Origin: a virus
Lineage: Duplodnaviria; Caudoviricetes
IMG/VR virus record: IMGVR_UViG_3300001528_000534
Span: 32,001 to 96,000 of that record
Strand: one strand, 5' to 3'
Length of the DNA: 64,000 bases
Notes under the pieces: generated by a model
Told to the model about the DNA's origin: nothing
Database searches by the model: none
Seen by the model: the letters and a program-made list of their open reading frames with translations, nothing else
Shown here: in pieces, positions 10,463 through 63,027 of the stretch
Position numbering within the stretch: position 1 is the stretch's first letter
Layout of the letters: the number at the start of each line of letters is the position of its first letter
Program-made: the position numbers and the translations under genes

Positions 10463-11599
10463 ATGGCTGACAATATTATTAATATTGATGAACAATCAAT
10501 AAAAGAAAAAAAAGAGTCTGAAATTCCTGAATCTTCTTTTCCATTAAAGTTAGATTATTCTATTGAAGAACCAGAAGAACGAGTTAAATATGTAGACAAT
10601 CTTTTGAAAAAGATGCCTGCAGAGCAAATAAATTAGAAATATTTAGAAATAATGAGCGATTATATTATTTTTGCGATGAACAAAAAAGAAAGAAGAGAAA
10701 AGAAAATATTAACTGACAATAGACTTGTAACAGTTAATAAAAGAGAAACTTCTTTTGAGGGATTAGTAGATAAATTAGAAAATGGAGAAGACGGAATTTA
10801 TGGAATGCTTTCAGAGAATAAAAATTAGATTTTAACACCAAAAGATTCAATTACTTAGAAAGATATTGATGAAATTCCTGAATTACAAGAATTAAGACAA
10901 TTAATGGACTAGCTAGAAAAGGCGGAAAAGCTAGCAACAGGAAAAAGAAAATATAATTTAAAAAAATGGTTGATTCAATTACATTAGGATTAGTATATTA
11001 TAAGAAATTCTTATAGACAACCAATATATTCTTTTAAGAAAACAAAATCTGAACCTCTTACCGCAAATTTACAAGGCGACATTTATATTTCTCCAGAAGG
11101 AGAAATCATTGATACAAGCTTAATTTCTTTATGCGATACGAAACACGTATCAGAGTTATTATGTAATTATTCAAAAATAAAAGAAGATACATGGGGACAT
11201 TTTAACACAGATATGTATTATGTTATGGATGAGTTAGATGATATGATAGAAAAAGCATTAAAAGAAAATTATCCTCTTTATTATTCTCTTTTGATACATA
11301 AAATAGATGGTTGTTCTAACGCGGAAATCCAAGAATTATTAGATAAAGAATTTAATATTACTTACACTCCTGAATATATCTCTTCCTTATGGAGAAATAA
11401 GATTCCTAAATTAATAGCTGATAAAACACAGGAAACTTATTTATTATGGTTTTATACCTATAAAGAAAAAGCTAAATGGAAAAGATGTTCTCGTTGTGGT
11501 CAAATTAAATTAGCTCACAATAGATTCTTTTCTAAAAATAGTACAAGCAAAGACGGATATTATAGTATATGTAAAGCTTGTAGAAATAAAAAAGCGTAA
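10463..11599 (+). CDS. phage protein with HTH-like region and C-terminal Zn ribbon (TAG=Gln), possible transcription regulator
   Basis: Track fragments 10412-10636 and 11213-11599 share a frame and are separated only by TAG. CSRC...CKAC motif. Confidence 0.65.
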
Positions 11600-11613
11600 A
11601 GGAGATGAAATAA

Positions 11614-12819
11614 ATGTCTGTATCTAATAAAATTGTATGTCAAAAGTGTAATAAAGCAATGGAGGAAGAAAATTTTTATACCTATAAAGATGGCACGAAA
11701 ACAGAGCTTTGTAAAAAATGTTTGACTATGCATATTGATAATTTTAATCCAGATACCTTTTTATGGCTATTAGAAAAAATGGACGTCCCATATATTCCAG
11801 AAGAATGGAATGTATTAAGGGATAGAGCTTATGCGAAATTAGGTCCAATAGGTATTAATGGAATGTCAGTTTTTGGTAAATATTTATCAAAAATGAAGTT
11901 AAAATAGTGGAAGTAGTATGGTTGGGCAGATACGGAGAAATTACGCTTAGAGAGCGAACAAAAAGAAGCTATCAACAGAGAAATACAAGAAAAGAAAGAG
12001 CAAGAAGCAAAAGAACGATATGAAAGAGGAGAAATCTCTGAGGCGGAATATCGTACTCTTACTAGTTCTATTACATAGCATGCAAATGAGAGTACCTTAC
12101 CTTTTACTAGACCTACCCCAATACCTGCGGGAATGCCGCAGCCCGCATTTCCTAATCCTTTTGAGAATGCAAACTATATTCAAGAAGAAGATTTGGTTGA
12201 TTTAGGGGCAGAATTAACTAAAGAAGATAAAATTGCAATGGCAATGAAATGGGGGCGGACTTATAAGCCTTCAGAATGGGTTGAACTTGAATCAAAATAT
12301 AATGAAATGATGAACTCATTTGATATTCAAGATTCTGATACTATTGGCACATTAATTTTAATTTGTAAAACTTATTTAAAAATGAATTAGGCTCTTGATT
12401 AGGGTGATTTAGACGGTTATCAAAAATTATCAAGAGTATATGATTCATTAAGAAAATCAGCAAAATTTACTGCCGCTTAGAATAAAGAAAAGAAAGAAAA
12501 TTACGCAGATTCAGTTGGCGTATTAGTTTCTTTATGTGAGAGAGAAGAAGGATTTATTCCTCGCTATGCAACAGATATTCCACAGGATAAAGTTGATGCT
12601 ACTCTTATTGACACTTAGCGATATCTGTCTACTCTTGTTAAAGAAGATTTAGGTTTTGGACAATAGATAGAGGAAGCAATTAAAAAGTTAGAAATTTAGA
12701 GACAAATGGAAAAAGAAAACGAATTAAAAGATTCTGATTACATAGAATATTATAATGAGATAGAAGCAGAAAAAGATGCTGATAATGATTTAATAAACAA
12801 TGAAAAAGAAGAGGAATAA
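11614..12819 (+). CDS. Zn-finger protein upstream of terL, candidate terminase small subunit (TAG=Gln)
   Basis: CQKC/CKKC motif, one frame through TAGs to TAA 12817-12819. Function assigned by position only. Confidence 0.55.
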
Positions 12820-12824
12820 TAGAT

Positions 12825-15800
12825 ATGGCATTAAAAGATTTAATAGCCATCTCCGATAATAGATTACAAAAACAAGGGATATCAGAAGAGAGAATTAAAA
12901 AAATTATTCCTGTTTTACGATAGTATATTTCCTTTTGGAGGGAATACCCTGATATTTTTGTTGAATTTTTATGCGGAGATAACCCCGAAAATTTTCATTT
13001 ATTCTTCTATTAGAGAGTATTTTTAAGAGCTATAATGAGACATAGATATGCTTACGCTACGTACCCTCGTGCGTATAGTAAGTCTTTCTTGTCAGTTTTA
13101 GTTTTAATGCTAAGATGTATTTTGTTCCCCGGTGCTCACTTGTTCGTCACTACGGGAGGTAAAGAGCGAATGTTTGCTCTGCATTATTGGAAAATAGTGA
13201 AAAATAATTTTTTTGAATTGCTGGAAAGTCCGAAAATTCTATTGCTACAATAAACTAGATTTATACTAATAGTTTATGATAGAGCCGAAAGGCAGAAACA
13301 AGTATAGAAATATCTCATGTTGAAAGACTAAAAGACAATAAAGGATAATCAGCAGCTAAGTAAGGAGTATAAATATGAAAAAATTAACTTTAATAGATTT
13401 TCAAAATAGACTAGATTTGATTCATCCAAAAGAAAACTTAAAAGCTATTGAATGGAATGGTGGAAGGCAACTCGCAGTAGTAAAATGTTTAACTTGTAAT
13501 AAAATATATTCTAAAAATGGAGAATACTTTTTAGATAAAAGAAAAGTTAGTATTTGCAAAAATTGTTTTCCTACTCAACCTAATCAATTAAAAGATACAT
13601 TTCCGTTGCCAGAAGAATATTCATATATTGAAAAATATAAAGGTATGCATAATAAGGTTTTGATTAAACATAATAAGTGTGGCTTTATATGGGCAATTAC
13701 TCCTGTTAATATTAAATTAGGAAAAGGATGTCCTAAATGTAATAAAAAAGTTTCAAAAGGAGAACAAAAAATTATAAAATGGTTAGAAGATAATTCTATA
13801 TTTTATGAATCACAAGTACCAATAGATATAGAAGGACATCATTTATCTGTTGATTTTTATTTACCTTCTTTTGATTTATATATTGAGTATAATGGAGAAT
13901 AGCATTATAGGATGGTTAATTTTTTTGGCGGAAAAGAAAAATTCGATAAACAACAAAAAAATGATTGTTTAAAAAGAAATTTTTTAAAAAAGAAGCTAGT
14001 TGAAATACCTTATACTTATTTTGAAAATATTGAAGAAATCCTTAAAAGTTCAACGACTATCTCGAAAGAGAGTACATAGCAAGCGATGGCTGTGGAAGTG
14101 GAAAATCTCCTAAGAGGAGAATGATATAGTCTCAACTTCTAATGAAAGTTAGAGCAGTTCATAAGAGAACGCATACGACTTAGCGAATCGTATGGAAGGT
14201 ATTGAAGCAGCTGGAATAGCAAAAGAGAAGGTAGAAGAGTTATGTAAATTAATTCCGGGTTTAAAAAATGAAATAGACTGGAGTAGAGGAGCTTCTAAAT
14301 CTTCTAAAGACAGCGTTATTTATATTTTTAAAAATGGCAGTTAGTTAGACATTATTGCGGCGAGATAGAGTTCTAGAGGAAAGAGAAAAACAGGTGGCTT
14401 AATAGAAGAGGTAAGTAAAATTGCCTTAATATATCTTTTCCCATATGATGAATGGGGGTTCGCTAATGCGAGCTAACGGGGAAACCTAAACAATTATTGC
14501 ATGGTAATCCCGTGGGAAAATTATTTGGTCTATTTTAATTAAATTCTTACATTCCATCTTTATATATTACTGTAAACATAAAATATGTAGGAGGAATGTC
14601 CCAATGATGGGAATTTATAAATTTGAAAATCAAAAAAATGGAAAATGTTATATTGGATAGTCAATAGCTTTAGAAACAAGATATTAGTCTCATTTTCGGA
14701 ACCACCAAAATAGCAATTTGAGAGATTACAATACTAAATTTTATAGAGCTTTAAGAAAATATGGATTTGAATGTTTTACATATTCTATTCTTGAATAGTC
14801 AGACTATTTTTCAAAAGAAGAATTAAATGAAAAAGAAAAATACTGGATTCAATATTATGATGGCTATAAAAATGGGTATAATAGTAATTTAGGTGGAGAA
14901 AAAGTTACTGAAAATGCAGAGAATCATCCAATGGCAAAACTTACTAATTAGGAAGTTTTAGAAATAAAAAATTTATTAAAAAATTCTAATATCAATTAGT
15001 ATGATATTGCAAAATAGTATAACATTACTTAGAGTGAGATTTCAAATATTAATGAAGGCAAAAAATGGACAACAATTGGAATCTACAATTATCCTATTAG
15101 AAAATCAGGAGCTTTAAGAACGGGTATAAATAATCCGAAAGCTATTTTTACAGAAGAATAGATAAATGAGATTAGAAAAAGATATGTGAATGAATCTGGT
15201 AGATAGATTTATCAAGATTATCAATCATTATGTTCATATACTACTTTTGAAAGAATTCTAATAGGAAAGACCTATACGAATTTGCCAATTTATAAGAAAA
15301 AAGAAAAAAAATGGATAAATAATTAATCCTGTATCGACTATCCCTGAGGTTGAAATGCTGGGGAGTAAGGCTGTTATTCATACACAGTTAAGTTTTAGGA
15401 AACGAAGCTTATGCAAATTGAAATGGATATAGCAATATATTAAATTATATTGTTAAAAGATAGTCAGTAATTATTAGAAATAATAATATTAATACGAATT
15501 CTAGTAGACGGAACATTGCTAAATGAAATTATCATACCTACTATGAATGTCGATAGAAGACTTGCAGACGGGTCTCGGCATAGAGAAGAAGTTGTTAATA
15601 AATCTTAGATTTATGTAACGACAGCTGGTTGGAAATCTTCATTCGCTTATGATAAATTAATTTAGCTTACTGTTTAGGAAATATTAGAGCCAGAATAGGC
15701 TGTAGTATTAGGTGGAACTTGGAGAGTTCCTGTTTTAGAAGGATTATTAAGTAGAACGTTTATTTCTGAATTAAAAATGGACGGAACTTATAATGATTCG

Positions 15801-17652
15801 TCTTTTGCAAGAGAGTATAGATTGATTTGTACTCTTAAAATTATTGAGAATTGCTGGGAAAAACCTTAGAGCTTTTTAAACTACAACATAAGTATGAAAT
15901 AAAACTAAATGTGAATTGTTAAAAATTAAAAAGATTGGGAAATCAGCAGCCGAGCCTCGAAGAGAGGAAGGTTCAACGACTAATGATTATCAGAGCGATA
16001 ATCAGTACAATACAGAATCAAAAAGAAAGGTTGTTATTATGAAACAAATAATAGTTGATAATATCAGTACCTCATACTTTATAACAGAAGATGGAAGATG
16101 TTATAATACCAACACAAATAAATATTTAAAGGGTTAGATTGGGAAAAATGGTTATATATCCTTTAATATAACTCTCCCTAGTGGAAAAAAAAGAAGACTT
16201 TATGCACACAGATTAGTTGGTTTAAATTATCTTCCTAAACCTATAAAAAATAAAAATCAAATAAATCATATTGATGGCAACAAATTAAATAATCATTTTA
16301 CTAATTTAGAATGGATTACTGCTTCGGGAAATTAGCAGCATGTTTTGAAAAATGAATTACGAAAATATAATCATATTTATTGTTTTAATAAAGATAAGAA
16401 ATTAGTTGCAGAATATATTAATGTTACAGAGGCGGCAAATGCAGTAAAAATTAGTAAAAGTATTATAATACAAGAGATTAATAAAGATGTGAAAACATTA
16501 AGTGGAGGTTTCTATTGGTCTAAAGAGAAAACTTTAAAGCAAGTAAAAAATTATTCAAATTTAGGTAAAGCTAAAGAAGTATATCAATATGATTTAAATA
16601 ATAAATTTATAATGGCTTATGAATCAACTGGAGCGGCAGCTCGAGCTTTAGGTATAAAGAATGCGAGCCATATAGGAGAATGTTGTAGAGGAAAAATAAA
16701 AACCTATAAAGGTTTTATTTGGAGATATTCTGAAGATATAGTCTTAACGTCTAATGAAAATTAGAGAAATACTCCGCAAGAGTAGTAAAAAATGGAATCA
16801 GTTTGGTCAGGAGATGTAGAAAATGCTTTCTTCTCTTCTGAAAAGTTTGACAGTTAGAGAATACTTAATTAGCCAGAATATGAATATAGCAATCGTTCAG
16901 CAAAGAATGCTTATTATGTAATAGGCGTTGACGTAGGTAGAAAAGGATGTACTACAGAAGTGGTAGTTTTTAAAGTAACTCCTTAGCCGCAAGGTCCTTC
17001 TTTAAAAACAGTTGTTAATTTATATACTCTTGAAAATGACCACTTTGAAGATTAGGCTATTGTTCTTAAAAAATTATATTATAGATATAAAGCAAGAGTA
17101 TTAGCAATAGATGCTAATGGTTTAGGTATTGGCTTAGTAGATTATATGGTTAAATCTCAAATAGACCCTGATTCAGGAGATACTTTATTTGATTTTGGGG
17201 TTTATAATGACGAAGATAATTTTTATAAAAAATATCGAACTCCTAATACAGAAGAGGATGCTATGTTTTTAATTAAAGCTAATGCCCCTATTAATACTGA
17301 AATTTATAGCTATGTTTAGTCTTAGCTACAAAGTGGAAAGATTAAATTCTTAATTGATGAAAATCAAGCAAAAATTAAACTTCTGGGTATGAAAAATGGT
17401 TAGGCAATGGATGCTAAAAAACGAGCAGAATATTTAAAACCTTTTACTCTTACGACTATTCTTAAAGAACAAATGTTAAATCTTGTAGAAGAAAATGAAG
17501 GTATTAATATTATTTTAAAACAATCTTCAAGGGCAATTAAAAAAGATAAATTTTCTGCTTTTTCTTATGGTCTCTATTATATTAAAAAAGAAGAAGATAA
17601 AGGCAAAAAGAGAAAAAGACATAATATTTCAGATTTCTTATTCTTTAATTAA
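12825..17652 (+). CDS. terL: terminase large subunit, 4 exons (12825-13167, 14205-14412, 15497-15818, 16795-17652), 576 aa with TAG=Gln
   Basis: Walker A-like PRAYSKSF, Walker B GGLIEE, coupling motif VTTAG, nuclease IGVDVG, IDANG and KDKFSA. Splicing restores TTGGKEQAAG, LIEEVILVD and FAREYESVW. Confidence 0.9.
13168..14204 (+). mobile_element. group I intron 1 in terL
   Basis: Core elements AATTGCTGGAAA, AATCAGCAG, TTCAACGACTA and GATATAGTCT. Terminal G 14204. P1 AGAGC/GCTCT. Confidence 0.85.
13375..14124 (+). CDS. intron-encoded Vsr/DUF559-like endonuclease with Zn fingers (TAG=Gln)
   Basis: SKGE, DFYLP and IEYNGE(TAG)HY motifs, CxxC pairs. Confidence 0.8.
14413..15496 (+). mobile_element. 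group I intron 2 in terL
   Basis: P1 GAGGU/GCCUU with U.G at the splice site. Core CTAACGGGGAA, AATCCCGTG, TATCGACTA and GATAGTCA. Terminal G. Confidence 0.85.
14604..15326 (+). CDS. intron-encoded GIY-YIG homing endonuclease (TAG=Gln, absent from the track)
   Basis: MMGIYKFENQKNGKCYIG(TAG)S...LNEKEKYWI...NGYN. RBS AGGAGG. Confidence 0.88.
15819..16794 (+). mobile_element. group I intron 3 in terL
   Basis: P1 AGAGUAU/GUACUCU. Core AATTGCTGGGAA, AATCAGCAG, TTCAACGACTA and GATATAGTCT. Terminal G. Confidence 0.85.
16039..16788 (+). CDS. intron-encoded HNH endonuclease with NUMOD1-like repeats (TAG=Gln)
   Basis: YAHRLV...INHIDGNKLNNHFTNLEW. C-terminal VYQYDL...AAARALG...YKGFIWRY. Confidence 0.85.
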
Positions 17653-17712: not shown

Positions 17713-18069
17713 ATGAGAGCTAGCAGAGGCGAAATTAAAATAGAAGAGATTCTTGAATAGGCAGGATTGCCTTTTGTAGAAGAATATACTTTTAGTGATT
17801 TAATTGCTTCCAGCGGAAAGCCTTTACGTTTTGATTTTGCTGTTTTTGATGATGAAGGTAATTTGGATTTCCTAATTGAATTTTAGGGAATCCAACATTA
17901 TACCCCTAAAAGCAAATTCGGTGGCGTATCAGGATTAAGAAAGCAATAGTATAATGATTTTTAGAAAAAGGAATATTGCCAAAAACATAATTATAAATTA
18001 ATTATTATTCCTTATTGGGATGAAGGTAGAATTGATTATGATTATATTATGAATGCGGCAGGATACTAA
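17713..18069 (+). CDS. Vsr/DUF559-like endonuclease between terL and portal (TAG=Gln)
   Basis: SRGE...LRFDFAV...IEF(TAG)GIQHY...LIIIPYW. Confidence 0.75.
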
Positions 18070-18089: not shown

Positions 18090-19658
18090 GTGGCAACAGA
18101 GTAGAGAAGACAAGAAATTCATAATAAAGGTTTTAATATGTTCTCTTCTTCAGATTATGAAAGATAGCCTATGACTGATTTTAATAAAATTAAAGTCGGA
18201 ACAAAAACGTTAGAAGATGCGGTTTTAAATTTAGGCTCTTTAAAAAGAATAAATTAGCATTTAGCAAATAAAGATACCGTTTTAACTGCAATTGCGGAAA
18301 GCGATTTAAATACAATGAGAGAAATATCTGATTTCTTTTATAAAACGAGCGGTATTTACTCAAGATTATGTAGATATATGGCATATCTTTATAGATATGA
18401 TTGGATGGTAACTCCTTATGTCAATTAGACTGCGAATGTCAAAGAAGAAAAGATTGTAGAAGGTTTCTATAAAGCTTTAACTTATTTGGATAATTTTGAA
18501 GTAAAAAAATTTTTGGGAGAAGTAGCTCTTAAAGTTATTAGACAAGGTTGCTATTATGGATATTTAATTCCTTAGACTAATAAAATGGTTGTTTAGGAGC
18601 TTCCGCCCAAGTATTGTAGGTCTAGATATTCTATAAATAATCGTCCAGTAGTGGAATTTAATATGCGTTTTTTCGATGATAATTTTATGGAAACTCAATA
18701 GAAAATAAAAATTTTAAAGTTATTTCCAAAAGAATTTTAGAAAGGTTATATTTTATACAAAGAAAATAAACTTTAGCCTGAATTTTTAGGAGATACTAAT
18801 GGTTGGTATACTTTAGAGCCGGGGAAGGCTATTAAATTTAATATTAATGGAGAAGATTTTCCCGCCTTTATTTCAGTTATTCCTGCTATTATAGATTTGA
18901 ATGCCGCGCAAGATTTAGACAGGTAGAAAATGGCACAGAAGTTATTAAAAATTATTATTTAGAAAATGCCATTAGATAAGAATGGAGACCCCATTTTTGA
19001 TATAGATGAAGTTAGAGAATTACATAATAATGCTATCCAAATGTTGAGTAAAGCAATAGGTGTTGATGTATTAACTACTTTTGCAGATGTTGATGTAGCA
19101 GATATGGCAGATAATGGTAATGTGTCTTCTGTTGATGAACTATCAAAAGTAGAAAGAACTGTATATAATGAAGCGGGTGTGTCTCAAATGCAGTTTAATA
19201 CAGATGGTAATTTAGCTCTTGAGAAATCTATTTTAAATGATGAAGCCTCTTTATATAATTTAATTACTTAGTTTGAGAGTTTTTTAAATGATTTATTAAT
19301 TCCTTATAATAAATAGCCTAAAAAAATTAATTTTAAGGTACAAATTTTAACAACTACTATTTATAATTATAAAGAAATGGCTAAGTTATATAAAGAATAG
19401 ACTTAGCTAGGTTATTCTAAGATGTTACCTTAGATTGCTCTTGGTCAATCTTAGAGTTCTATTTTAGCTAATGCTTATTTTGAAAATGATGTTCTTGATT
19501 TGGTTAATGTCTTTATTCCTCCTTTAATGAGTTCTACTATGAATGCGGAAGTTCTTAATAATAATTAGACTTCTAGTGGAGAAGGAGCAGGAAGAAAAGA
19601 AAAAGCTGATGATGAGAAGTCAGAAAAAACGATTTAGAATAAAGAAAGTATGAGTTAA
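18090..19658 (+). CDS. putative portal protein, 522 aa (TAG=Gln)
   Basis: RBS and GTG start, single frame with only TAG interruptions. Size and position after terL fit a portal. Confidence 0.75.
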
Positions 19659-19677: not shown

Positions 19678-21027
19678 TTGCCAATACAATATGCAAGAAC
19701 CATTAATAGTCCAGAATTTATTAATTTAAAGCCTCTTGATATTAATCCTTTTATGTCTGCCTGTGAAATTAAAGTTTTATATGTAGGCAAGAATAGAAAT
19801 TAGAGCTTAATTTCTAAAGAGGTAGCAGAAGAAATGGCTAAAACTTTAAGAGGCGCTCCTATTGTAGGATATTATAAAGAAGAAGTAGGAGATTTTCGTG
19901 ACCATGGAGATTTAATTACTATAGATGGCGATTCAATTAGTTTTGCTTGTCAAACTAAGCCTTATGGTTTTGTATCTCCTGATTCTAAAGTATGGTTTCA
20001 AGATTTTATAGAAACTGATGAAGACGGAACGGAAGCTTAGAGAACTTATCTTATGACTACAGGTTATCTTTGGACAGGACAATTTGAAGAATGTAAATCT
20101 GCTATAGCAGAAGGAAGACCTTAGTCTATGGAATTAGACAACGACACGTTATAGGGTCAATGGACAAAGTTGGCAAATGAGAAAATAGAATTTTTTATTG
20201 TAGATGACGCAATATTTTCAAAATTATGTATTTTAGGAAAAGATGTAGAACCTTGCTTTGAAGGTGCTATGGTTACTGGACAGACAACTCAATTTTCTAA
20301 AAATTCAAATTTTGGAGCAACTTTATATACAATGATGAATGAACTTAAAGAAGTTTTAAAAGGAGGACAATCTAAGATGGATACAGAGAAGCTTTCCCCT
20401 GAGTTTAAAAAGCAAACAGATGAAGAGCCAGAAAAGGAAGCTCCTGCTAAGGATAGCGGAGAAGCAGAGAAAGACGACAAGAAGAAGAAATTTACTGAAT
20501 CTGGTTCACAAGCAGAGTCAGAAGATGATAAAGACAGTAATAAAGGCTCTTCTGATGATTCTAAGGATGATAAGAAGCAAGAAGATTCTAATAAAGAAAA
20601 TAAAAATAAAGATGATGACGATAAGAGCAAGAAAAAGGATTATGCTTTGTTAGAAACTTAGTTTACAGCTTTGAAGCAACAAATGGAAGCTTTACAAAAA
20701 GCAAATGAAGAATTACTTGCTTTTAAGAAGTAGGCGGAGACAGCAAAGAAAGATGAGATGATTGCTTCTTTCTATATGCTTTCAGATGCTGATAAAGAAG
20801 ACGTTATTAAGAATAAAGATAAGTATTCTTTGGACGATATTGAATCAAAACTTTCTGTTATTTGTGTAAGAAAAAAGGTCAACTTTAATTTAGACGATTC
20901 AACAGAAAATGATAATAAAGTAGAGAATGAAAATAGTTCTATTACTACTTATAATTTAAATGATGCGGCTGATTCTACTACACCAGAATGGATTAAGGCA
21001 TTGAGACGCACTGCCGCATTAGACTAA
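19678..21027 (+). CDS. prohead protease/scaffold protein (TAG=Gln)
   Basis: DFRDHG, GRP(TAG)SMEL and LCILG...VEPCFEGA motifs, followed by a charged low-complexity/coiled-coil region. Three track fragments in one frame. Confidence 0.75.
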
Positions 21028-21672: not shown

Positions 21673-22713
21673 ATGGCATTAGAATTTTCACAGCTAATTC
21701 AAATGGGTAAAGCCCTTGCTAAGGCTTCTCCTGACGCTCCTGTTGCTTATTCTTATAAGGGAGAGAACTTTAATTATAATTAGCTAGATACAACTTTTAG
21801 AAATGAATTACAAGCTTATGCAGGAACTTACGCTCTTTATAGAGAAAATAAGAACAAGATGTTTGCTTTAATTGAAGCTATTATCAATGATGTTCTTCCT
21901 AAGAGAGTTCTTGAAATGTATGGTCAATTTGCAGAAGTTAAGACTTTTGCTCAGGGTGACAAGCCTATCTTTACACAGAAGATTACTCAAGCTTCCAAGA
22001 GACGTGCAAAGCAGTTTATTGGTAAGGTAGGACTTGCAGGTTTGTATGAAGTATTCAAGCTTGACAGTCAGTCTTATGAGGTTACTACTAATGCAATCGG
22101 CGGCGCTGCTCAGATTGGTTGGGAAGAATACCTTGATAAGAGAGTAGATTTTGCTGATGTTTTAGATATAATTCTTGAAGGTCTTGATGAATGTATTTAT
22201 GTTGAGATTGAAAAGCAATTAATTGGCGCAGTTAGCAATGTTCAAACTGCTAACAAGACATCTCAGGCAAGTTTCTCAGAAGCAGAAATGGATAAGCTTT
22301 TAACTATTGCAGATTCTTATGGTGCAAGAGCAGATATTTATTGTACTTTTGAGTTTGCGGCAACCATGATTCCTGCTGAGGGATGGGTTTCCAATGAAAT
22401 GAAAAATGAAAAGTGGAACAATGGCTATCTTGGCAATTATAAAGGTCATAAGGTAATTGTTCTTCCTCAGTCTATGGAAGATGAAACAAATACTACAAAG
22501 GTTATTGACCCCAAGTATGCATGGATTATTCCCTCTGGCGCAACAAAGCCTGTTAAGATTGCTTTTGAAGGTGAAACTATTGTTGATGATTATAAGAATT
22601 ATGACCGTTCAAGAGAAATTTAGGTTTATAAGAAAGTCGGCGTAAGAGCAATCTTTACAAACGATATTTGTGTTTATGAAAACACTTCTCTTAGCAGAGA
22701 AATATCAAAGTAA
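21673..22713 (+). CDS. major capsid protein, 346 aa (TAG at 21781 and 22621)
   Basis: Size, position, high-expression codon bias and downstream terminator. Confidence 0.78.
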
Positions 22714-26496: not shown

Positions 26497-27666
26497 ATGC
26501 GTTTTGGTTCAAGAGAAATTTGCAATGTAGTATTTAGAGCTAAAGCTGCTCAAAGAATTGGTAATATGACTTTCCAAAAAGGTCAGCCTGTACTATACAT
26601 TGACTCTGCGAAGACCTCAACAGTTGAAGGTGCAGCTACTTCTGTTTATGCAACAGGTGGTAGAGGTAACTCAAGACTTATTGCGTGGGAAGGTGAAAAG
26701 ACTTTAACTTTCACAGTAGAAGATGCTTTACTTTCTCCTGTAAGTTTTGCAATGCTATCTGGTGCTGGTCTTATTAAAGGTAAGGAAGAAGAAAAGGTAC
26801 ACGTACATATGACTTCTTATGTACAAATAGATACTGCAGAAATTGACCTTACTGATGCTTTAGGCGTTAATGATACTATTTGTGCAAGCGCGCCTATCTT
26901 TGTTATTGTAACAGAAGAAGATGGCTCTATTACAGGTAATTTAATCGAAGTTAAGGCGGATACTAGCGGTAAGAAATTACTTCCCGCGAAGGATGCTACA
27001 TTTGATGAAGCTTATATCGGAAGAACTGTTATGGTTGACTATTATGTCATCAAGGATTCTGCTAATGTATCTGAACTTCAAATTGATGCAGAGAATTTCG
27101 CAGGATACTACTATGTAGAAGCAGATACTCTATTTAGACGTCAGGATGGTTCAGGAGATATGCCTGCAAACTTTACGCTTCCTAACGTAAAGATTCAGTC
27201 TAACTTTACATTCTCTATGGCATCTAGCGGCGACCCTAGTACCTTTACATTTACAATGGATGCTTTCCCCGGCTATACATACTTTAATAAAGCTAAGAAA
27301 GTTCTTTGTGTAATTCAGATTATTGAAGATTCTGAGGCTAGTGAAGCAGAAGCTAAGTCAGTAATGTCTCATTCTGATAGTGAAACTGTTGATGAATCAG
27401 CAGAGGATTCCACTCCTCTTGCAGAGTATGATATGAGTTCGGTTAAGTGGCCGACTCCCGCGACAAAGTCTCATACAGGTTCAGAAATTACTTATGAATT
27501 AGAAGGCTTGCCAGAGGGTGTAACTGCTGTTTATAGCGGTAATAAGGCAACAGAAACAGGTACTTATACAGTTGTTGTTGAGTCATTAAAGTATGATGCA
27601 AAAACACACAAGAAGCCTGAACTTCCTAAGGGAGTAACAAAGTCTAAGATTTGGACAATTGAGTAA
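26497..27666 (+). CDS. major tail tube protein with C-terminal Ig-like extension
   Basis: Strong RBS and codon bias, ATGGRGN and GDPSTFTFTMD motifs, C-terminal GLPEGVTAVY repeat-type domain, terminator 27680-27721. Confidence 0.7.
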   Translation: MRFGSREICNVVFRAKAAQRIGNMTFQKGQPVLYIDSAKTSTVEGAATSVYATGGRGNSRLIAWEGEKTLTFTVEDALLSPVSFAMLSGAGLIKGKEEEKVHVHMTSYVQIDTAEIDLTDALGVNDTICASAPIFVIVTEEDGSITGNLIEVKADTSGKKLLPAKDATFDEAYIGRTVMVDYYVIKDSANVSELQIDAENFAGYYYVEADTLFRRQDGSGDMPANFTLPNVKIQSNFTFSMASSGDPSTFTFTMDAFPGYTYFNKAKKVLCVIQIIEDSEASEAEAKSVMSHSDSETVDESAEDSTPLAEYDMSSVKWPTPATKSHTGSEITYELEGLPEGVTAVYSGNKATETGTYTVVVESLKYDAKTHKKPELPKGVTKSKIWTIE

Positions 27667-44853: not shown

Positions 44854-44869
44854 AGGAGATTAACCTATT

Positions 44870-45058
44870 ATGAAAACAGTAAATGAAATAGCTATAAAAA
44901 CAGATGAAGGATTTGAAGGTCCTTATCCAATAGGCACTTCTGATAAATATGTTAACTGTACTTTTAATAACGAGAAAGTAACATTAAATGCCGCATTGGG
45001 AGATATTCAAAAATAGATAAATGAAGTAAAAATTCAATGGACGGATATAGGGGTCTAA
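44870..45058 (+). CDS. small hypothetical protein
   Basis: RBS, 62 aa with one TAG. Confidence 0.55.
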
Positions 45059-45111
45059 AAGAAATAATTTGTTCTTCTATAAAATCATATATATAGAAGG
45101 AGCGTGAAAAT

Positions 45112-45579: not shown

Positions 45580-45608
45580 TAGAATAAGAGATAAAGGAGA
45601 TAAAAGAA

Positions 45609-48218: not shown

Positions 48219-50107
48219 TGAAAATTATAGAATCTGAATATTTAAAAGATGATAAATTTCTTTCTTTAATAGACTCTCTTTAGATTAAAGAATAGTATAT
48301 TAAATTAACTCTTTTAACTTGGGATGAAGAACCTATTGAAGATATCGAAGGATACAGTACCGGTGGCAATTTAAATTTAGATGGAAATTCTAGTATTAGA
48401 AGAACTTGCAATTTAGAAATGGTTTCTCCTGATACAGATTTAGATTTTTTTAATCTCAATAGAATGATTAGTTTAAATAAAAAAGTATATTTATGGATAG
48501 GAATAAAGAATACTACTTCTCAATATACTAATTATCCTATCATATGGTTCCCTTAGGGAATGTACATCATGATGTCACCTTCTATTTCTCATACTTCTAA
48601 TGGTATTTCTATTTCTCTTTCCCTTCAAGATAAAATGTGTTTATTAAATGGAACTTGCGGCGGCACCCTCCCCGCTTCAGTTACTTTTCATGAAATAGAA
48701 GAAGAAATAGACGGCAAAGTTGTCATTAATAAACCAACAATATATCAAATTATTCAAGAGCTTGTGAATCATTTTGGAGGACAAGATTTAAGTAAAATTA
48801 TAATTGAAGGATTAGATACGAGAGTTAGACAAGTTATGAAATGGAATGGAGATGAGCCTATTTATCTTCATGAATTTTCTGATGGTCAAACAGTTTAGAG
48901 ATATTTTTCTTACGATGCTGGAGGTAAGAAATTTGACCCCGGTTATGATATTGGATATATTTATACCGATTTTACCTATCCGGGGGAACTAATTGGAGAT
49001 GCAGGGAGCACTGTTTGTGACATTCTCGATGAAATTAAAGAAACATTAGGCAATTATGAATATTTTTTTGATATTTATGGAAATTTTGTTTTTCAAGAAA
49101 TAAGAAATTATTTAAATACTACTAAAGCAACTTCTGATTTAAATGATTTAGAAAAAGATAATAATTATGTTATAGATATATCAAATGGAAAAAGAGCTTA
49201 TTCTTTTGACGAAAATTTATTAGTTACTTCTTTTTCTAATGCGCCTTCTTTTGATAATATTAAAAATGATTTTTTAGTATGGGGTATGAAGACTACTGCT
49301 AGTGGCAATACTTTACCTATTCGATATCATTTATCTATTGATGAAAAGCCTCAGGTAGGGAATACTTATTCTATAAAAGTCAAAAGAGATGAAGATAATA
49401 AAATTATAAATGTTTATCCTGCTGATATGGAAATAGAAGATACAGAAACTATTACTATTATAACAAAAGATTGGCGGACAGAATTGTATTTATAGGGAAC
49501 AATGTCCGAAACTTTAGGGGTAGAATACAATTATTATTATACTGAATTAATGAATGAATGGTTGAAATTGTATGATATTGAAAATGGAAAATTTTATGAT
49601 GATTTAGTAATTACAGATTTAGATTTTTATTTGGATTTTATTGATACAAATGCATCTATTGGAGATTTTAATATTAAAAATATTGGACGTAGAAGTAAGG
49701 TATTAGTTGATGACAAAATAAATTGCTTGTTTGAACCAGAAATTCCAAACATAATTATTTTAGAAGCGGGAAATGATGATTTGTCTTCTCTAAAACAAGA
49801 GTGTGAAAATAGAGGAGAAGAATGGATTTAGGTTAATCCAGATATTTATAATAATATGGTTATGGGCGGTCAATTTAATAGTGCATTATATGCAATTAAA
49901 GATTTACTTTATCAATATACTAATTATAATGAAAGTATAACCATTCAAGCGATACCTGTATTTCATTTAGAGCCGAATATTAGAATTGGTGTTGTAGATA
50001 ATGAAAGTGGTATTAATGGTGATTATATGATTAACAATATTTCATTGCCTTTAGAACCCGGCGGAGAAATGTCGATATCAGCAATAAAAGCGTTATAGAA
50101 GATTTGA
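48218..50107 (+). CDS. baseplate hub/Tal-like tail protein, 629 aa (TAG=Gln)
   Basis: GNLNLDGNSSIRRTC, DKMCLLNG and NYEYFFDIYGNFVF motifs. Four fragments in one frame. Confidence 0.65.
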
Positions 50108-50116
50108 GGTGAAATA

Positions 50117-50650
50117 ATGATAGGTCAATTAATAAAATCAGATAGCACAAAATATATAACTAATCTTAATTATAATAAAATTAATGAGTAGACTTTTAAA
50201 ATTAATTTTAATAAAGGTAGTAAATATTATATTAAAATTTAGTTTGATATTAGCGAAACTCCGCAAGATGTATAGGTATACCTGTCTACAGACAGTTCTG
50301 TTTTACAAGAAAATAAGATTGATATTTTTTATTTCCCAGAGGAAACTCCTTTGACAAAAGAAATTGTTATAGCGCCTAATAAAGATTATAATTTTATATA
50401 TATATCTTTTAGTCAAGAAACAGTTGCTATTATTAATTTATAGATATATAAAATTGAAAATATTTTACCCGTTGCAGAAGTCAATAAAATAGGCGTTTGG
50501 GGAAATCCTTCTTAGATATTATGCATTAATGGAGAGAAAATTCAAATTGGAAGAACAGGTATCTATGAAATTTATAATTAGGATATTTTAATTAATTTTA
50601 TAGGTGTTATTCCACAAGAAACAAATTTTATTATAGATTATGAATATTAA
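50117..50650 (+). CDS. hypothetical tail protein (TAG=Gln)
   Basis: RBS and continuous frame. Confidence 0.55.
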
Positions 50651-50667
50651 AGAGGAGGGTATAAATT

Positions 50668-52299
50668 ATGGGTAGTTTTTATGGCGGACGTAGAGGCGCC
50701 TCCGCATAGATAGTTAAAACATATAATTCTTATTCAGAAATGGAAACTGACTTTTCTTCTTCTGATTGTTCTGTTGGATATAATGAATATGTTATTGTAA
50801 ATGAAAATGATTAGAGTATATTATACAAAAAAACTTTTACTGTGCCAGAAAAAATTGGTTCTTTAATGCCAAATAAAGATTTAAAAGTAATAGATTTTGA
50901 TATTGCTCTTAAATCTTATGAGGATATAAAATCAGAAACTGGAGCTGTTGAAAAAGAATCTACTTTAGAAAATGGAGATATAATTCCGGGCAAAGAAACT
51001 ATTAACGGAGAAATTAAATATAATGATAAATTATATTATATTTATAACAATATTTTAAATGGAGAAGGAGATACCGTTATTTCAGAGATAGGTGTTAAAG
51101 TTCCTTATTCTGTAATAGATTTTTCTGCGGATATTTTAGAAGGAGACAATGACGCTTCTCATCCTCTATTATCTTAGATTTTTGAAAAAGATGAAAAAGG
51201 ATAGAATATTATACATCCTTTTTCATCTTCTTGGCATTTTAATATCCCACGAGGCAAATCTGGCTCAAGTATTAAAAATTTAAGGGTATTAAGTGCAGAT
51301 TCTATTTCTAAATAGAAAATAGCCTTAGTTAATAGACCTCAGATACCAGAAGGAGATATTCAAAATTCTATTTAGTATTTAATTTATGATGAATATAATC
51401 CTATTACCGATACAACTTTAACTTATTATTTAGGAAATTCAACGTAGATAGAAGATATTTCTTTATCTAACAATGGAACTCTAACTGTTAAATATGAAGG
51501 TGGTAGAATTGTATCTTTTGATAGAGTGATTAAATGGATAAAAGATATTTCCATTTCTGATGATGGGACTATTACTATAGAATATAACGATGATAATTCT
51601 GACATTTTTGAAAAGAAAATTCGTTCAATTTCTGATTTGTCTTTTGATGAAAACGGAAAATTTATTATTTCAGATAATCAAAATAATGTTATTAATCAAG
51701 AAATCAAATGGATTAAAGATGTTCAAATAAATGAGCAAACTTAGAAAATTAATATTACTTATAATATCCTCGATAATGAAGGGAAAAATATAACTACAGA
51801 AATAGGTTCTCCTCTTAATTATATTGTAAGAACTGCAATAGATAATAATTATAATTTATTAATTTATAATAGCGACCCTGAAATAAGAAAAAAGCTTGGC
51901 TCTTCTGCAGTTACTTATGATGGTTTAGAAGGATGGTAGAATTTAGGAAATATTAAAGAGGATAGTGGAATCCTTATTGGTAAAAATTATGAAAATTTAA
52001 ATAATTATAGCCAAGAAAATATTATTAAAAAATTAAATACAGATTATCCAAAAGGTTTATTAAATTTAGATAAAGGTAAAGTAATAACTGTTGGTGCAAA
52101 CAATCAAATTAAATCTTTTTATGCTTTTGATTATGACTAGAATACGTGGTATTTTTTAGGGAAAATTGGAGATTTAAGCAGATACCCTAACTCTGGAGTT
52201 TTTGTTGGAAAATCTGATTTTAATACCAACGATAAATTAGAATCTTTGAATGTTGGCGGTTTTTGGTTCGTTACTTATGGAGAGGACGATGAAACATGA
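50668..52299 (+). CDS. putative tail fibre/receptor-binding protein, 543 aa (TAG=Gln)
   Basis: Internal repeats IKWIKDISISDDG/IRSISDLSFDENG/IKWIKDV. Fragments 50842 and 51526 in one frame. Confidence 0.55.
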
Positions 52300-56949: not shown

Positions 56950-58552
56950 TTAATGAGACCCCGTACTTCCAAAACCGCCATCTCCGCGAGCAGTATCTTC
57001 AAGTTCATCAACCTCTTGCCATGTATCTGTCACATAAGGAATGAAAATAAGTTGTGCAATACGCTCATTAGGTTCTATTATCTGACGGACATTTGAATCA
57101 TTGTGTAGAGGAACGATATATTCTCCCGTATAGTCTGTATCGCAAACCAATTTGTTATCGTAAAAGTTTTTTATCTTCTACCTCTTATGATTTCTCATAA
57201 GCTCAGCATATCTTTTCACTATATAAGTGCTGCGGCCTCGTGGGAGAATTATTCTTTCGTCATCTCCTATGCGTTGCCCCTGACTAAACCTATTTACATT
57301 TTAGCCTTCGGTTCGGATTAGCTTATTTTTCAACTTAGCCTTCCCGCTTAATTCCGCAGTTTAACGTCGGCGTTTTTATTTTTCTATAAATTCACTTGTT
57401 TCAAGCAATAAATCTTTAATATTTAATTCTTTATATCTAGTATAAGGTATTCGTATAAGAGGAATATTATTTTCTTTGCACCATTTAGATTTTATTAAAT
57501 CATGTTTATGAGTATATTCATAATCAAAAATACTATCTATGTTAAAATGCTATTCTCCATCATATTCAATTAAATATCTATTATCTATATAAAAATCAAA
57601 AGGCAAACTTCTTTTATCTTTACAAGAATTAAAAATTTTTTCTGTTTCATATTTAATATTATTTTGTTTTAATATTTGTGCAATTTTTTCATTACCTTTA
57701 GATATGTTAGAATGATTTCCGCAGCTTAAACTCTTTTCTTCTCTTAAAGATTGCCCTAAGACATCTTTTTCATTACCACATTCACATCGGCAACGCCAAT
57801 ATATGCTTCCATTTAAAGCTTTTTTATTAGATTTTCCTAAAACTACCCATTTTCCAAAAATCTGTCCTGTTAAATCTATCTCAGTGGTATTTTTATATTT
57901 TCGTTCTTTTCCTTTTAAGCCTGCATCATACCATGTTTTTGTAATCATTCCTCTTGATACGTTATATTCTTTTGCTAACTCACTTGAAGTTTTTGAATTA
58001 TAGTCTTTTATTATTTTTTCTTTATCTTTGGAAGATAATTTATAATTCCTATTTATTTGATTTATATTAAAATTAATTTTTTTAGCATGGTTTAAAACTG
58101 AGCCTTTATCACAATTATATAGCTCTCCCATTTTTCTTGAACTTTTAAATTTTAAATAATTAGCAATAAATTCATCATCGCTACCCCAGTTTATTCTTTT
58201 TCCCATATTCTATTCTCCTTTTTAATTTTTATCAATATTATATGAAAAAAGATTTCACCGGATTAATCAAAGAATACCAAAGATAAAATTTTTATTAGTT
58301 TTCACCGACACAATTCGCAGGTCTAAGTCCTTTCTTTGTAGCAAGTCCGCTACGAGCGAAAATAGCTCCAAAAGTATTAATATCTGCAATTTTAGGAGGA
58401 GTAATTGCAACACCTGTTCCAATTTTGACAGTTGTATGAGGCTGAATAGGAATAGGCTCATCAATACAAGCATATAAATCATAACCTGCCGCGTATTTAC
58501 TTCCCTGTGTAGGAATTGTTGCATTTGGCTTAATTTTCTTGAATTTAATCAT
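56950..58552 (-). CDS. dut: trimeric dUTPase, 2 exons (58552-58304, 57147-56950), 148 aa
   Basis: AAGYDL, ARSGLA, spliced NCVG-VCDTDYTGE, RIAQL and RGDGGFGSTG motifs. Confidence 0.93.
57148..58303 (-). mobile_element. group I intron 5 in dut, with its ORF in the P1 loop
   Basis: Exon end GUCGGU pairs with GCCGAC (57371-57366), downstream of the ORF. Core very similar to intron 4. Terminal G. Confidence 0.85.
57376..58206 (-). CDS. intron-encoded Vsr/DUF559-like endonuclease with HTH and CxCxCG domains (TAG=Gln)
   Basis: DLTGQIFG...WRCRCECG...SCG, SKGNE, PFDFY, IEYDGE(TAG)HF and LIRIPY motifs. Confidence 0.82.
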
Positions 58553-58802: not shown

Positions 58803-58816
58803 ATTAATATGACTCC

Positions 58817-59080: not shown

Positions 59081-59091
59081 ATTTTTCCTCC

Positions 59092-59463
59092 TTAGCATTC
59101 AATAACTGCTTGAGAATAAGGAAATAAGTAATAAACATGGGGCAAATCTTCCATAAAAGGCTTCAACCAAATTTCATAAGCCCCATTTTTTTGTTTATCT
59201 ATTGCGTAAATAACTCCTCTTTCTTTTAGAGTTTCAATAACTTCATAACTTGCCTTTTGTCTTGAATTAAAAGAACCTTTAAGAACATATACAGTATAAT
59301 CGCTTAATTCTTTACATAAAAGCATATAATATTTTTCTTTTCTTTCAAAATAATTAATCAAATCAGCTCTTTTTAAATCTATCTCTCTATTAGATAAAGG
59401 ATTTTCTTTATTCACTAACTATTGATTAATTTCATACATATTTCCAATAGGTATATTATTCAT
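59092..59463 (-). CDS. hypothetical protein (N-terminus extended through a TAG)
   Basis: RBS AAAGGAG before ATG 59463. Confidence 0.65.
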
Positions 59464-59944
59464 GTTTTTCTCCTTTACGCATATAAGATATTGTCTAATT
59501 TGAAGACCCTCTTAAATCAAGAGTTATATCTCTTAATGAATCTATATAAGGACCGTCAATTAAAACATCAACTTTATTAGCTACATTCTATTGAAGTAAA
59601 TTAAAATGTTGTTTTTCATATCCTGTCCACAAATAAATTGTAATATCTGGAAACATAATCCTTACATTGTCTATTAAGTATTCTACCAAAAAAATATTTT
59701 CATAACAGAGAGGTTCTCCGCCCAAAATACTAAAATTTCGTTTTATACCGTTTTTATCTATTGCAACAAGAATTTTCTTTAGAATATCTTCGGCGGTATC
59801 TCTTTTACCACCCATAAAAGACCAAGTTTCTGGATTATGGCAATTAAAACAATGATGTGGACACCCCTATGTCCAAAAAGATACGCATATTCCTTTTCCA
59901 TTTGTTGTATCATTTTCTTTAATATCTGCATAAGCAACGAACAT
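59456..59944 (-). CDS. nrdG: anaerobic ribonucleotide reductase activating radical-SAM enzyme (TAG=Gln)
   Basis: WT(TAG)GCPHHCFNCHN, LGGEP, WTGY, LIDGPY and LRGSSN(TAG) motifs. Confidence 0.92.
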
Positions 59945-59979
59945 ATTTGTTGAAACCTCCAACATAAATTATAAATTCC

Positions 59980-62900
59980 TTAATCTAAATGAACAACTCT
60001 CATTTTTATTTCTTGAGTTCGCCCATAATTCCAAAAATGCGCTCCGATATATCCGCAAGTTCTTCTTGCAACGTTCATTTTTGACTAATCTCTATTGCCA
60101 CAATTAGGACAATACCATTGCATATTATTATCAATCAATATTTCTCCGTCATAGCCACAATTATGACAATAATCAGATTTTGTATTTAATTCAGCATATG
60201 CAATATTATTATAAATAAACTAAATAATAGATAGAACAGCGGGAATGTTATTTTGTAAATTTGGAGTCTCTATATAACTTATTGCGCCACCCGCACTATG
60301 TTTTTGAAATTCAGCTTCAATAGATAATTTAGAAAAAGCGTCTATTTTTTCAAAAACTGGAAGATGATAACTATTGGTGATGAAATTTCTATCTTGACCA
60401 TCAAGTTTAATAAAGATATCTTCTCCAAATCTTTTCTTTAAAGTCTTAGCGAATTTATAAGTTGTGGATTCTATCCTTCACTTTTTGTTTTTGGACTATC
60501 TTTTCACCCTTTTTCTCAAAGGGGTTCGCTCTTTCGCTTTTGCTACTCTACTAGGCTTGTCACCGTTCGATAGTCTCTACACATTTATATTATTATTTTT
60601 AATATTGTTCATCTTGGTATCTAAAATACCAATCTTTTCTAACAGGTCTTTTATATTTTGCTTGTCTACCAATGGTTGAGGCAGGACACCCTGTTAATCT
60701 TGCAGCTTCTTTTATCGAACCATATCTTCCCAATTCTTTATTTGTTTTTGTTTCATACATTACAACAGGTTTAGATTGACTATCATTATATCCTTTATCA
60801 TTTATTAATAATCCATCATTAATTGCTTTTTGCGTATTTTCAGAATAAGTAGTCCAATATAAATTATCGACTCTGCAATCAGTTTTTATATTATTTTTAT
60901 GACCTACAATAGGAAGATTTTTAGGATTTGGGATAAAAGTTTCTGCTATAACAATATGCTATCTTCTTTTTTTCTTAATATATTTACCATTTTTATCAAT
61001 ATATTTTAATGTACAGTATTTATAGCCCTGTACTAAAGAGGATGCGCACTCAAAATATTCTCCATAATGTTTTACAGGAGTAAGTATATCTTTATACCAT
61101 CTATTTGGGACTTTTCGAGTTTCTTGTCCATAGATTTTTCCATCTGGAGTACACCAATTTAAAGTATTCTTGATTACTTTTGCATTTGTAGGCAACTCTT
61201 TAAAATAGTTCATCTTTTGTCTCCTTTCTTTTTTAATAATTAAAAATAATAATAATTTAGCTCGGGATTTCTTTCGATTCCCCGAATTAAGCGATTTTTT
61301 CATTATCTATCACTAGATAAGCTCCCATAGAATCTAACTTTTTAAATTTCAGGAGACCCATATACGCTATAATCAATATCTTCTTCTTGCTTCCACTATT
61401 CACACTTTTTTTCAAGAGCTTCCATAATTTTTAATCCAAAATTTCTGCTTCTTCCTTCAACTGCATGAGATTTTCCAGTCATATATTTTACACATTCATA
61501 TAAACCAGCGTATCCCAAGCTAGCAGTAGCATAACCATGGTGAAGAAGCTCTCTTATGCTTTCATGTTTATCTAATCTTGCAAAAGCTCCATGTTGCCAC
61601 AAAATAGGTGCGACATCAGAAGTTATTTTTTCAAGTCTTTTAATACGAGCTTGTAATCCTCTATGACAAAGTTCAGTTCTTTCTTCAAAAAGCTTCCAAA
61701 ATAATTCTTCATTCTTATGAGAAGAAAAAGCTATATCAGGTAAATTTAATGTCGTTACGCCAACATTAAATCTTCCATAATATTTTCCTTTATCTGAATC
61801 ATAATTCTTAGCTCTTGAGATATTTTCTTTAACTCTATCAGCACTAAGAAAACTTCTACAACCCATACAAGGAAAACAGTCTCCATTTTTCATTTCTTTT
61901 AATTTTTTTTCTGAAATGTAGTCTGGAACCATACGCTTTGCAGTGCATTTTGCGGCAAGCTCTGTTATTTTCCAATAAGGAGAATTTTTATGAATATTAT
62001 CCTCTTCTAAAACATAAAGAAGTTTAGGAAAAGCTTGTGTTACATATACTCCTTTTTCATTTTTCATGCCTTGCATTCTTTGTTTTAAAAATTCTTCTAT
62101 TAAAAGAGCTAAATCCTCTTTATATCTTTTTGTTTCTCCTAAATACATACATACAGAGAGGAATGGTGCTTGCCCATTCGTAGTGCTCATAGAATTAATT
62201 TGATAATTAAAAGTCTAAACGGCATCAGAGATTTCTTTTTGTAAATCCTCTTCTGCGAAATTTTTAGATTGCTCTTCACTAAAGCCTCTTTCAATATATT
62301 TTTCATAATACTTTTTTCTGCTATCTTCTACAAAAGGTGCTAAATGAGTTAAAGAAATAGTACAGCCGCCATACTGAGAACTAGCTACCGCCGTAATAAT
62401 CTATGTTGCTATTGTTACAGCAGTTAATAGACGATGAGGCTTTTCAATCATTACTCCATTGATATTAGTACCATTTTGGAGCATATCTTCTAAATTAATT
62501 AAACTACAATTTGTTAAAGCATTTTGTGCCATATAATCTATATCATGCTAATGAATTATACCTTTATCATGAGCTTCACAAATATCCGCGTCTAACAACT
62601 TTCTACGACTATAATCTGTACTAGCAATACCTGCGAGATAGTCTCTTTGTACTGTCACAACAGTAGCATTCTTATTGGAATTTTCTGTCTTCCAATATTC
62701 ATTATCTCCTTTTAGAAAATCCGTAATAGTTTTATCGGTTATATTGCCTCTTGCTTGATTTCTCTCTTCTCTATAAAGAATATAAGCCTTAGCAACATCT
62801 TTCCTCTTAGTTGACATTAATCCTTTTTCGACTAAATCCTGAATATCTTCAACACTTAATTTTTTTTCTGTTGCAATATCTTCAATATAATTTGAAATAT

Positions 62901-63027
62901 TCTCAGCCTTTTTTTCGGCATATTCAGAAATCTCTCCGTCAACTTGTTTAAATGCGGCAAGTATGGCTCTTTCAATTTTCTTTTTATTAAACTAGACTTT
63001 TCTGCCATCTCTTTTAATAATTTCCAT
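59980..63027 (-). CDS. nrdD: class III anaerobic ribonucleotide reductase, 2 exons (63027-61351, 60474-59980), 723 aa (TAG=Gln)
   Basis: ATP cone IIKRDG, NCSL, ASSQYGG, NGQAPF, MGCRS, TNSYH and glycyl-radical RRTCGYI motifs. Spliced junction YGSP-IESTTY. Confidence 0.95.
60475..61350 (-). mobile_element. group I intron 6 in nrdD
   Basis: P1 CUCCU/GGGAG with U.G. 8-bp P10 GAUUCUAU/AUAGAAUC. Core TAATTCGGGGAA, AATCCCGAG, GTAGAGACTA and GATAGTCC. Confidence 0.88.
60599..61213 (-). CDS. intron-encoded HNH-type endonuclease with NUMOD1-like tail (TAG=Gln)
   Basis: R(TAG)HIVIAETFIPNP...VGHKNNIKTDCRVDNLYWTTYSEN and SIKEAAR motifs. Confidence 0.8.

Follow-up and report, generated by a model that had tools for sequence, protein, structure and literature searches.

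Gut phages in which TAG encodes glutamine (genetic code 15) have been described with suppressor tRNAs, early genes free of TAG and close relatives with the standard code (Borges et al., bioRxiv 10.1101/2021.08.26.457843), and in crAss-like phages this reading of TAG has been proven by proteomics (Peters et al., PMC9523058). Phage phAss-1 belongs to a wider monophyletic group that includes Enterococcus phage EF1 and in which some divergent members are recoded (Babkin et al. 2023, PMC10607447). The subject here is the meaning of TAG in the uncultured gut virus recorded in IMG/VR as IMGVR_UViG_3300001528_000534, referred to below as the phage. Analysis started from a window of 64,000 nucleotides (bases 32001-96000) of its single 139,691-bp contig, which has 30% G+C and a 68-bp end overlap, is listed in IMG/VR as a virus with direct terminal repeats and has a CheckV completeness of 100%. 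Positions are those of the window unless marked as genome positions. An initial annotation, made from the letters of the window, had proposed that TAG is reassigned to glutamine across 10463-63027.

The phage resembles the code-15 gut phages in having TAG at glutamine positions, a tRNA with the anticodon CUA (tRNA(CUA)), putative early genes free of TAG and stops dominated by TAA, and it also shares with them a presumed standard-code host and close standard-code relatives. Unlike the code-15 crAss and Lak phages, it is an EF1/phAss-1-like siphophage, has no release factor 2 or synthetase gene and carries TAG in replication genes. The initial annotation named Lak and crAss-like phages as comparators; the phage belongs to neither group, and the relatives of its portal protein are found in Bacillota phages. 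With phAss-1 it has in common a genome of ~136-140 kb, a tape measure protein of more than 3,000 amino acids (aa), TAG read as glutamine, a tRNA-Sup(CTA), the lack of a synthetase gene and kinship with EF1, but it has one suppressor tRNA where phAss-1 has two or three.

TAG is a sense codon in this phage. Under code 11 the window contained 45 open reading frames (ORFs) of at least 100 aa, the longest of 389 aa, whereas reading TAG as sense gave 68, including frames of 3,444 aa (95 TAGs) and 1,635 aa (33 TAGs). Across the genome, ORFs of 200 aa or more covered 0.23 of the sequence under code 11 and 0.63 with TAG recoded (code 15), against 0.24 with TGA and 0.36 with TAA recoded. Terminators of the 142 ORFs of at least 80 aa were TAA in 110, TGA in 32 and TAG in none, in keeping with the earlier remark that long genes are broken by TAG alone and close with TAA or TGA; in the standard-code relatives and EF1, TAG ends 11% of ORFs. 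In-frame TAGs numbered 445 and fell in 80 of the 142 ORFs, a few of these 80 being spurious frames that overlap the tRNA array. The recoding spans the whole genome and thus extends beyond 10463-63027. All eight TAGs quoted in the initial annotation were in frame and in the peptide context given there, on the plus strand at 14658, 13900 and 20122 and on the minus strand at 57550, 59867, 59495, 62401 and 62215.

To assign a residue to TAG, the cultured phage EF1 was used as the standard-code reference and its whole genome was compared. At 178 TAG positions aligned to EF1, glutamine made up 22.5% of the residues, against a background of 3.6% (p=9e-21), and ordinary CAA/CAG positions of the phage faced glutamine in EF1 in 22%. 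Likelihoods computed with an empirical substitution table from the same alignments were best for glutamine, with glutamate worse by 40 and lysine by 50 log-likelihood units (lnL).

A second comparison made use of 65 IMG/VR relatives without TAG recoding, whose portal proteins are 60-74% identical to that of the phage. Across 105 TAG columns, 51% of cells were glutamine, the majority residue being glutamine in 47 columns, glutamate in 12 and lysine in 10, and no stop was present at these columns in the 65 relatives. Where a column was conserved (at least 90%, in 20 or more relatives without TAG recoding), the residue was glutamine in 26 of 26 cases; in the portal protein, seven TAG columns were glutamine in 64-65 of 65 relatives. 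Another pipeline, run on 207 columns, favored glutamine over glutamate by 95 lnL. As a control, the same pipeline returned glutamate for the related complete genome G006, and therefore the method separates the two residues. As for codons, CAA occupied 35% and CAG 17% of the phage TAG positions (52% together) in the six standard-code relatives nearest to it, a frequency at least as high as that at phage CAA/CAG positions; no excess of CAG over CAA that would point to an origin of TAG from CAG was found at TAG columns in relatives.

Individual motifs cited earlier agreed with this result. With the underscore standing for TAG, EYNGE_HY (13900) aligned with glutamine in 51 of 51 relatives and EYDGE_HF (cited as 57552) in 45 of 45, and GRP_SME (20122) was indeed a glutamine position (glutamine 88, histidine 40 in relatives). 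In NrdG the TAG of WT_GC, residue 33, aligned with the conserved glutamine of pyruvate formate-lyase activase, and TAG residues 209 and 271 of NrdD corresponded to glutamine in two of three solved NrdD structures. Homologue columns, which were enriched in glutamine and not depleted of it, the codon comparison and the tRNA described below are three independent kinds of support, and we put the probability that TAG is read as glutamine in this phage at about 0.93.

As the initial annotation had stated, the window contains no tRNA. A search of the rest of the genome for the cognate tRNA, which it had advised, located tRNA(CUA) at genome c[1695-1767], ~30 kb before the window start. The genome has 19 tRNAs, of which 16 form one minus-strand array spanning the arbitrary contig ends; within this array tRNA(CUA) lies 66 bases from tRNA-Gln(UUG) (genome c[1554-1629]). 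It scored 60 bits with the Rfam tRNA model. Its identity to the phage tRNA-Gln was 72-76%, and the two share the D-arm, the anticodon stem and the loop flanks C32-U33 and A37-C38. In a tree of 119 tRNAs from the phage and its relatives, it fell in a set with four tRNA-Gln(UUG) that had a Shimodaira-Hasegawa-like approximate likelihood ratio test (SH-aLRT) support of 95. Judged by its sequence, tRNA(CUA) is of the glutamine type.

Escherichia coli glutaminyl-tRNA synthetase (GlnRS) recognizes U1-A72, G2, G3, G10, U35 and A37, and U1-A72 is also read by the amidotransferase GatCAB. The acceptor stem of the phage tRNA(CUA) starts with U1-A72, G2-C71 and G3-C70, and its body carries those identity elements and therefore fits either route to Gln-tRNA. 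A known parallel is E. coli supE, a tRNA-Gln(CUA) amber suppressor that inserts glutamine at UAG in competition with release factor 1 (RF1). Like supE, the phage tRNA keeps U1-A72, G2-C71, G3-C70, G10, U35 and A37; unlike supE, it is a dedicated gene serving hundreds of codons and not a mutant host allele, and its discriminator base is A where that of supE is G. Searches of the phage genome found neither the GlnRS/glutamyl-tRNA synthetase (GluRS) catalytic domain PF00749 (class Ic) nor the release-factor domain PF00472. Given the lack of a GlnRS/GluRS gene, tRNA(CUA) would presumably be charged by the host, and, with no release-factor domain in the genome, the phage has no visible counter to host RF1. 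Rfam at the gathering score returned tRNAs only, with no HDV-like (hepatitis delta virus-like) or theta ribozyme beside the suppressor tRNA.

TAG was unevenly distributed among genes. One block free of TAG, composed of small, mostly minus-strand genes, runs over genome 21079-41921 and takes in 1-9921 of the window. Between genome 30902 and 41921, ORFs of at least 80 aa had no in-frame TAG and all ended in TAA; the only TAG-bearing ORFs are short ones in a spacer with few genes (4195-6754). The genes at 1-9921 are presumed to be early and readable under the standard code of the host. Another block (genome 111794-124994) encodes NAD-dependent DNA ligase, a topoisomerase II subunit, a phosphoesterase and RNA ligase; a further stretch at genome 132379-135194 is TAG-free, as are the pieces of DNA polymerase III (Pol III) alpha. 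TAG-free blocks were much longer than expected by chance; one ran for 2,755 consecutive codons, in which ~31 TAGs were expected. Among virion genes, TAG accounted for 0.66 of glutamine codons in the portal gene, 0.68 in the gene at 27745-29067 and 0.43 in the tape measure gene, but the share fell to 0.12 in the gene of the major capsid protein and was 0 in three others. Few or no TAGs are thus present in the capsid gene and in two more virion genes whose products are probably abundant. CAG was depleted in TAG-bearing genes (4.0 vs 9.6 per 1000 codons).

Sequence context was biased as well. Of the bases after a sense TAG, 43% were A, 19% C, 21% G and 17% T, compared with 33%, 6%, 37% and 24%, respectively, after CAA/CAG (p=2e-14), while true stops were followed by T in 41%. 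The depletion of T after sense TAG, with A or C raised, recurred in two related genomes, G004 and G006, giving three genomes with p values from 7e-6 to 2e-14. A U at position +4 makes termination in bacteria stronger (PMC5289835). From the gene-level and context-level biases together, we infer that decoding of TAG still competes with termination.

In the proposed model, the phage translates TAG as glutamine with its own tRNA(CUA), a sister copy of its tRNA-Gln(UUG). The host would presumably supply the glutamine, either through GlnRS or through GluRS followed by GatCAB, and the charged tRNA would compete at TAG with the RF1 of the host. Genes required first (those at 1-9921 and those for ligase, topoisomerase, RNA ligase and Pol III alpha) are TAG-free and could be expressed under the host code. 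Expression of the sigma-factor-like gene, of the virion genes and of many genes for replication would require the suppressor. The distribution of TAG may in this way have a role in timing.

Some observations count against this account. Genes that carry TAG lie upstream of the tRNA array, which is itself outside the TAG-free block, and no RNA sequencing run is listed as containing the phage. The RecJ-like, DnaB-like, NrdD and NrdG genes carry TAG; with TAG in replication genes, a simple early/late switch is too neat. In eight genes TAG stands one to five codons before the TAA or TGA stop, and near the end of these genes it could still be a leaky stop. This last observation, the pressure of termination on TAG seen in the +4 bias and the lack of an RF1-removing factor in the phage genome would all suit a double meaning, in which TAG is mostly glutamine but a (leaky) stop in some contexts or early in infection, yielding short and long protein forms. 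However, no gene requires TAG as a stop and TAGs occur throughout conserved domains, and we regard a double meaning as unlikely.

The other explanations for the in-frame TAGs are far less probable than that. TAG might be sense but specify another residue (glutamate, tyrosine, lysine/pyrrolysine or leucine), as it apparently does in some related phages. ARAGORN by default labels the tRNA 'Pyl(cta)', relatives in the same clade read TAG as glutamate, and glutamate and lysine are the next commonest residues in TAG columns at low identity. Yet the glutamate and lysine background is the same at ordinary CAA/CAG columns, all 26 strongly conserved TAG columns are glutamine, glutamate is worse by 40-95 lnL and lysine by 50-118, and tRNA(CUA) clusters with tRNA-Gln and not with the tRNAs for glutamate, tyrosine or lysine, which makes another residue very improbable. 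Decoding as pyrrolysine was rejected, as lysine predominates in no more than 10 of 105 TAG columns and the tRNA is of the glutamine type; no search was aimed at pylS. If the TAGs were true stops, in pseudogenes or a faulty assembly, genes would appear fragmented under code 11, as they do, but the frames are broken by TAG alone and never by TAA or TGA, are conserved end to end with relatives, come from a complete record with terminal repeats and show a pattern also present in independent contigs from other samples, so that this explanation is next to negligible. The host itself might use TAG for glutamine, with the phage following, but the phage has its own tRNA(CUA) and a large TAG-free gene set, and codes differ among its sisters at 60-75% portal identity (standard, TGA as tryptophan or TAG as glutamate), which one host code cannot explain. 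To our knowledge no bacterium with TAG as glutamine has been described, and a recoded host has very little likelihood.

The best GenBank match of the phage was MT836163, an unannotated 12-kb fragment from human faeces (71% identity in aa, 72% by blastn), and the second blastn match comprised 130 bases in the fragment MT839587. Phage Phass-1, placed by NCBI under 'Caudoviricetes code 15 clade', has a portal 36% identical in aa, followed by Enterococcus phages of the EF1/VRE9 type (32%) and then by Bacillus, Brevibacillus and Clostridioides phages. Members of the proposed Phassvirus group are syntenic with phAss-1 and 80-86% similar to it in nucleotides (PMC10607447). blastn of the phage against GenBank gave no match to phAss-1, and with a portal identity of only 36% membership in the genus Phassvirus was rejected. 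The portal protein has its relatives in phages of Bacillus, Enterococcus, Clostridioides and Staphylococcus, and together with the tape measure and other virion proteins it assigns the phage to the large siphophages of Bacillota, where the phage belongs to the EF1/phAss-1-like group. The host is presumably a standard-code member of the Bacillota, by analogy with relatives that infect Enterococcus, Bacillus and Clostridioides. In public sequencing runs the phage reached a word share of at most 0.16, in pig-gut and other gut metagenomes, a share too small to bear on habitat or expression.

A plus-strand block covering the terminase, portal, capsid and tail genes begins at 10412. Its first gene (10412-11599, 6 TAGs) encodes a sigma-factor-like product (phrog_5767 'sigma factor', E 2.5e-50) that is 41% identical to an EF1 protein. 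The large terminase gene, terL, recognized by PHROG TerL and by tblastn with the pieces of EF1 TerL, lies at 12804-17652 on the plus strand in four pieces (12804-13235, 14204-14413, 15516-15902 and 16966-17649). Three plus-strand genes are inserted in it, at 13375-14124, 14604-15326 (GIY-YIG, by Pfam) and 15916-16788 (HNH, by PHROG), and all pieces and inserted genes carry TAGs. A domain with the motif EYNGE_H or EYDGE_H is common to three paralogues, at 13375-14124, 17713-18069 and 57376-58206; all three match one EF1 gene, the next after terL in that phage, and the same conserved glutamine is TAG in two of them. The paralogue at 57376-58206 has weak Pfam matches to DUF5889 and DUF2726.

Downstream on the plus strand, the portal gene (18090-19658, 19 TAGs; phrog_2739, E 9e-77) is followed by a gene for a 449-aa protein (19678-21027, 6 TAGs) that matches phrog_3313, a family with no assigned function. 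The initial annotation had called this product a protease; its TAG does stand at a glutamine column, but the label could not be verified, there being no match in Pfam or the Protein Data Bank (PDB) and no informative one in PHROG. The gene at 21673-22713 (plus strand) has 2 TAGs among 16 glutamine codons. Its AlphaFold2 model (mean predicted local distance difference test score 76.7) matched phage capsids and encapsulins in a Foldseek search of PDB (probability 1.00, E ~1e-7), and by this predicted HK97 fold the product is the major capsid protein. A 389-aa virion structural protein (26497-27666, plus strand; phrog_2729) has no TAG. The 3,444-aa tail tape measure protein (29487-39821, plus strand, 95 TAGs) matched PHROG tape measure families with E down to 1e-59. 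Beyond it, plus-strand genes at 39946-52299 for products of 1,635, 180, 869, 629, 177 and 543 aa, with 33, 4, 14, 7, 6 and 10 TAGs, respectively, were assigned to the tail or distal tail from weak PHROG tail matches.

The ribonucleotide reductase genes are on the minus strand. The NrdG activase gene (59456-59965) has 3 TAGs and a Pfam Fer4_12 match (E 3e-33). At 59989-63027, nrdD is split by an HNH gene (61303-60599, by PHROG) into an N part (63027-61345, 5 TAGs) and a C part (60471-59989). It was identified by a Pfam NRDD match (E 7e-121) that stops at profile position 414 of 562, having begun at 1, and by PDB alignments, and the C part was found by tblastn with the C piece of EF1 NrdD. The N part ends ...YGSPEI and the C part is the glycyl-radical part. 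EF1 has the same arrangement of nrdD and HNH gene, annotated there as 'phage intron'; Rfam at the gathering score found no group I intron in the split nrdD or terL of the phage.

Use of stop codons among relatives was surveyed in ~130 related loci from two IMG/VR portal-protein scans, which were sorted by alignment to the phage proteins. Many had no in-frame stops. In ~30 relatives of the same portal clade (L016, L032, L037, L038, L042, L044, L059, L063, L081, L183, L184 and others), in-frame TGA occurred almost only at tryptophan residues of the phage, which indicates that sister lineages read TGA as tryptophan (code 4). TAG faced glutamine in a few relatives (L085, i.e. G004; L089; and the L076/77/79/80 group) and glutamate in ~40 contigs, including the complete G006 (L158, 142,127 bp), the 133-kb G007 (L160), L041, L064, L138-L170 and others. 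These sisters with TAG at glutamate share with the phage the clade (63-75% portal identity), genome size, layout and captured codon; 28 of 31 conserved TAG columns of G006 were glutamate, in contrast to the uniformly glutamine columns of the phage, and glutamate was favored over glutamine by 102 lnL. G006 and G007 each have a tRNA(CUA) whose nearest neighbor in the tRNA tree is a tRNA-Glu, without branch support, and pairwise tRNA identity did not resolve the isotype of these suppressors.

Other relatives gave less clear readings. In the 67-kb fragment L021 (G001), which has few TAG codons and no tRNA, TAG faced tyrosine in 18 of 34 comparisons with the phage, and tyrosine filled 64/64, 44/62, 8/8 and 7/8 cells of its TAG columns; L021 is a candidate for a lineage that reads TAG as tyrosine. 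A contig scored as standard, L020, has the same portal as L021. The meaning of TAG in G002 (L075) was ambiguous, with glutamate over glutamine by only 4 lnL. No tRNA(CUA) was found in the DNA examined of G001, G002 and G004 (140 kb, 89% complete), and its gene may lie in the missing part, or suppression may have another source. Among the papers searched, none reports TAG as glutamate or tyrosine in phages.

Code states were scattered over a quick maximum-likelihood portal tree, in which the neighbors of the phage use the standard code. As short 'standard' contigs may lack recoded codons, the 15 code changes counted are an upper bound. The approximately unbiased (AU) test did not reject a single clade with TAG as glutamine (p 0.23), and therefore an independent origin of this reading is not shown. 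The clade, defined by portal identity of at least ~60% and drawn mostly from animal-gut or rumen-type samples, has as its code states the standard code, TGA as tryptophan, TAG as glutamine, TAG as glutamate and possibly TAG as tyrosine. The phage is probably the glutamine branch of one clade in which stop codons were captured in at least three, perhaps four, ways.

The practical consequence concerns annotation, as more than half of the phage proteins are fragmented under code 11 and the correct table is 15. The phage is a further member of the already described code-15 phages of the wider phAss-1/EF1-like group, and it adds a complete genome with its own suppressor tRNA to a clade whose close relatives use other codes. 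Such a clade permits direct comparison of how TAG gains different meanings. If the proposed readings are true, the meaning of TAG would follow whichever tRNA became the suppressor, the +4 bias of sense TAG would be the mark of a competition with host RF1 that is still going on, and the clade would be a hotspot of code change comparable to ciliates, in which the shift of a codon from one meaning to another could be studied in nature.

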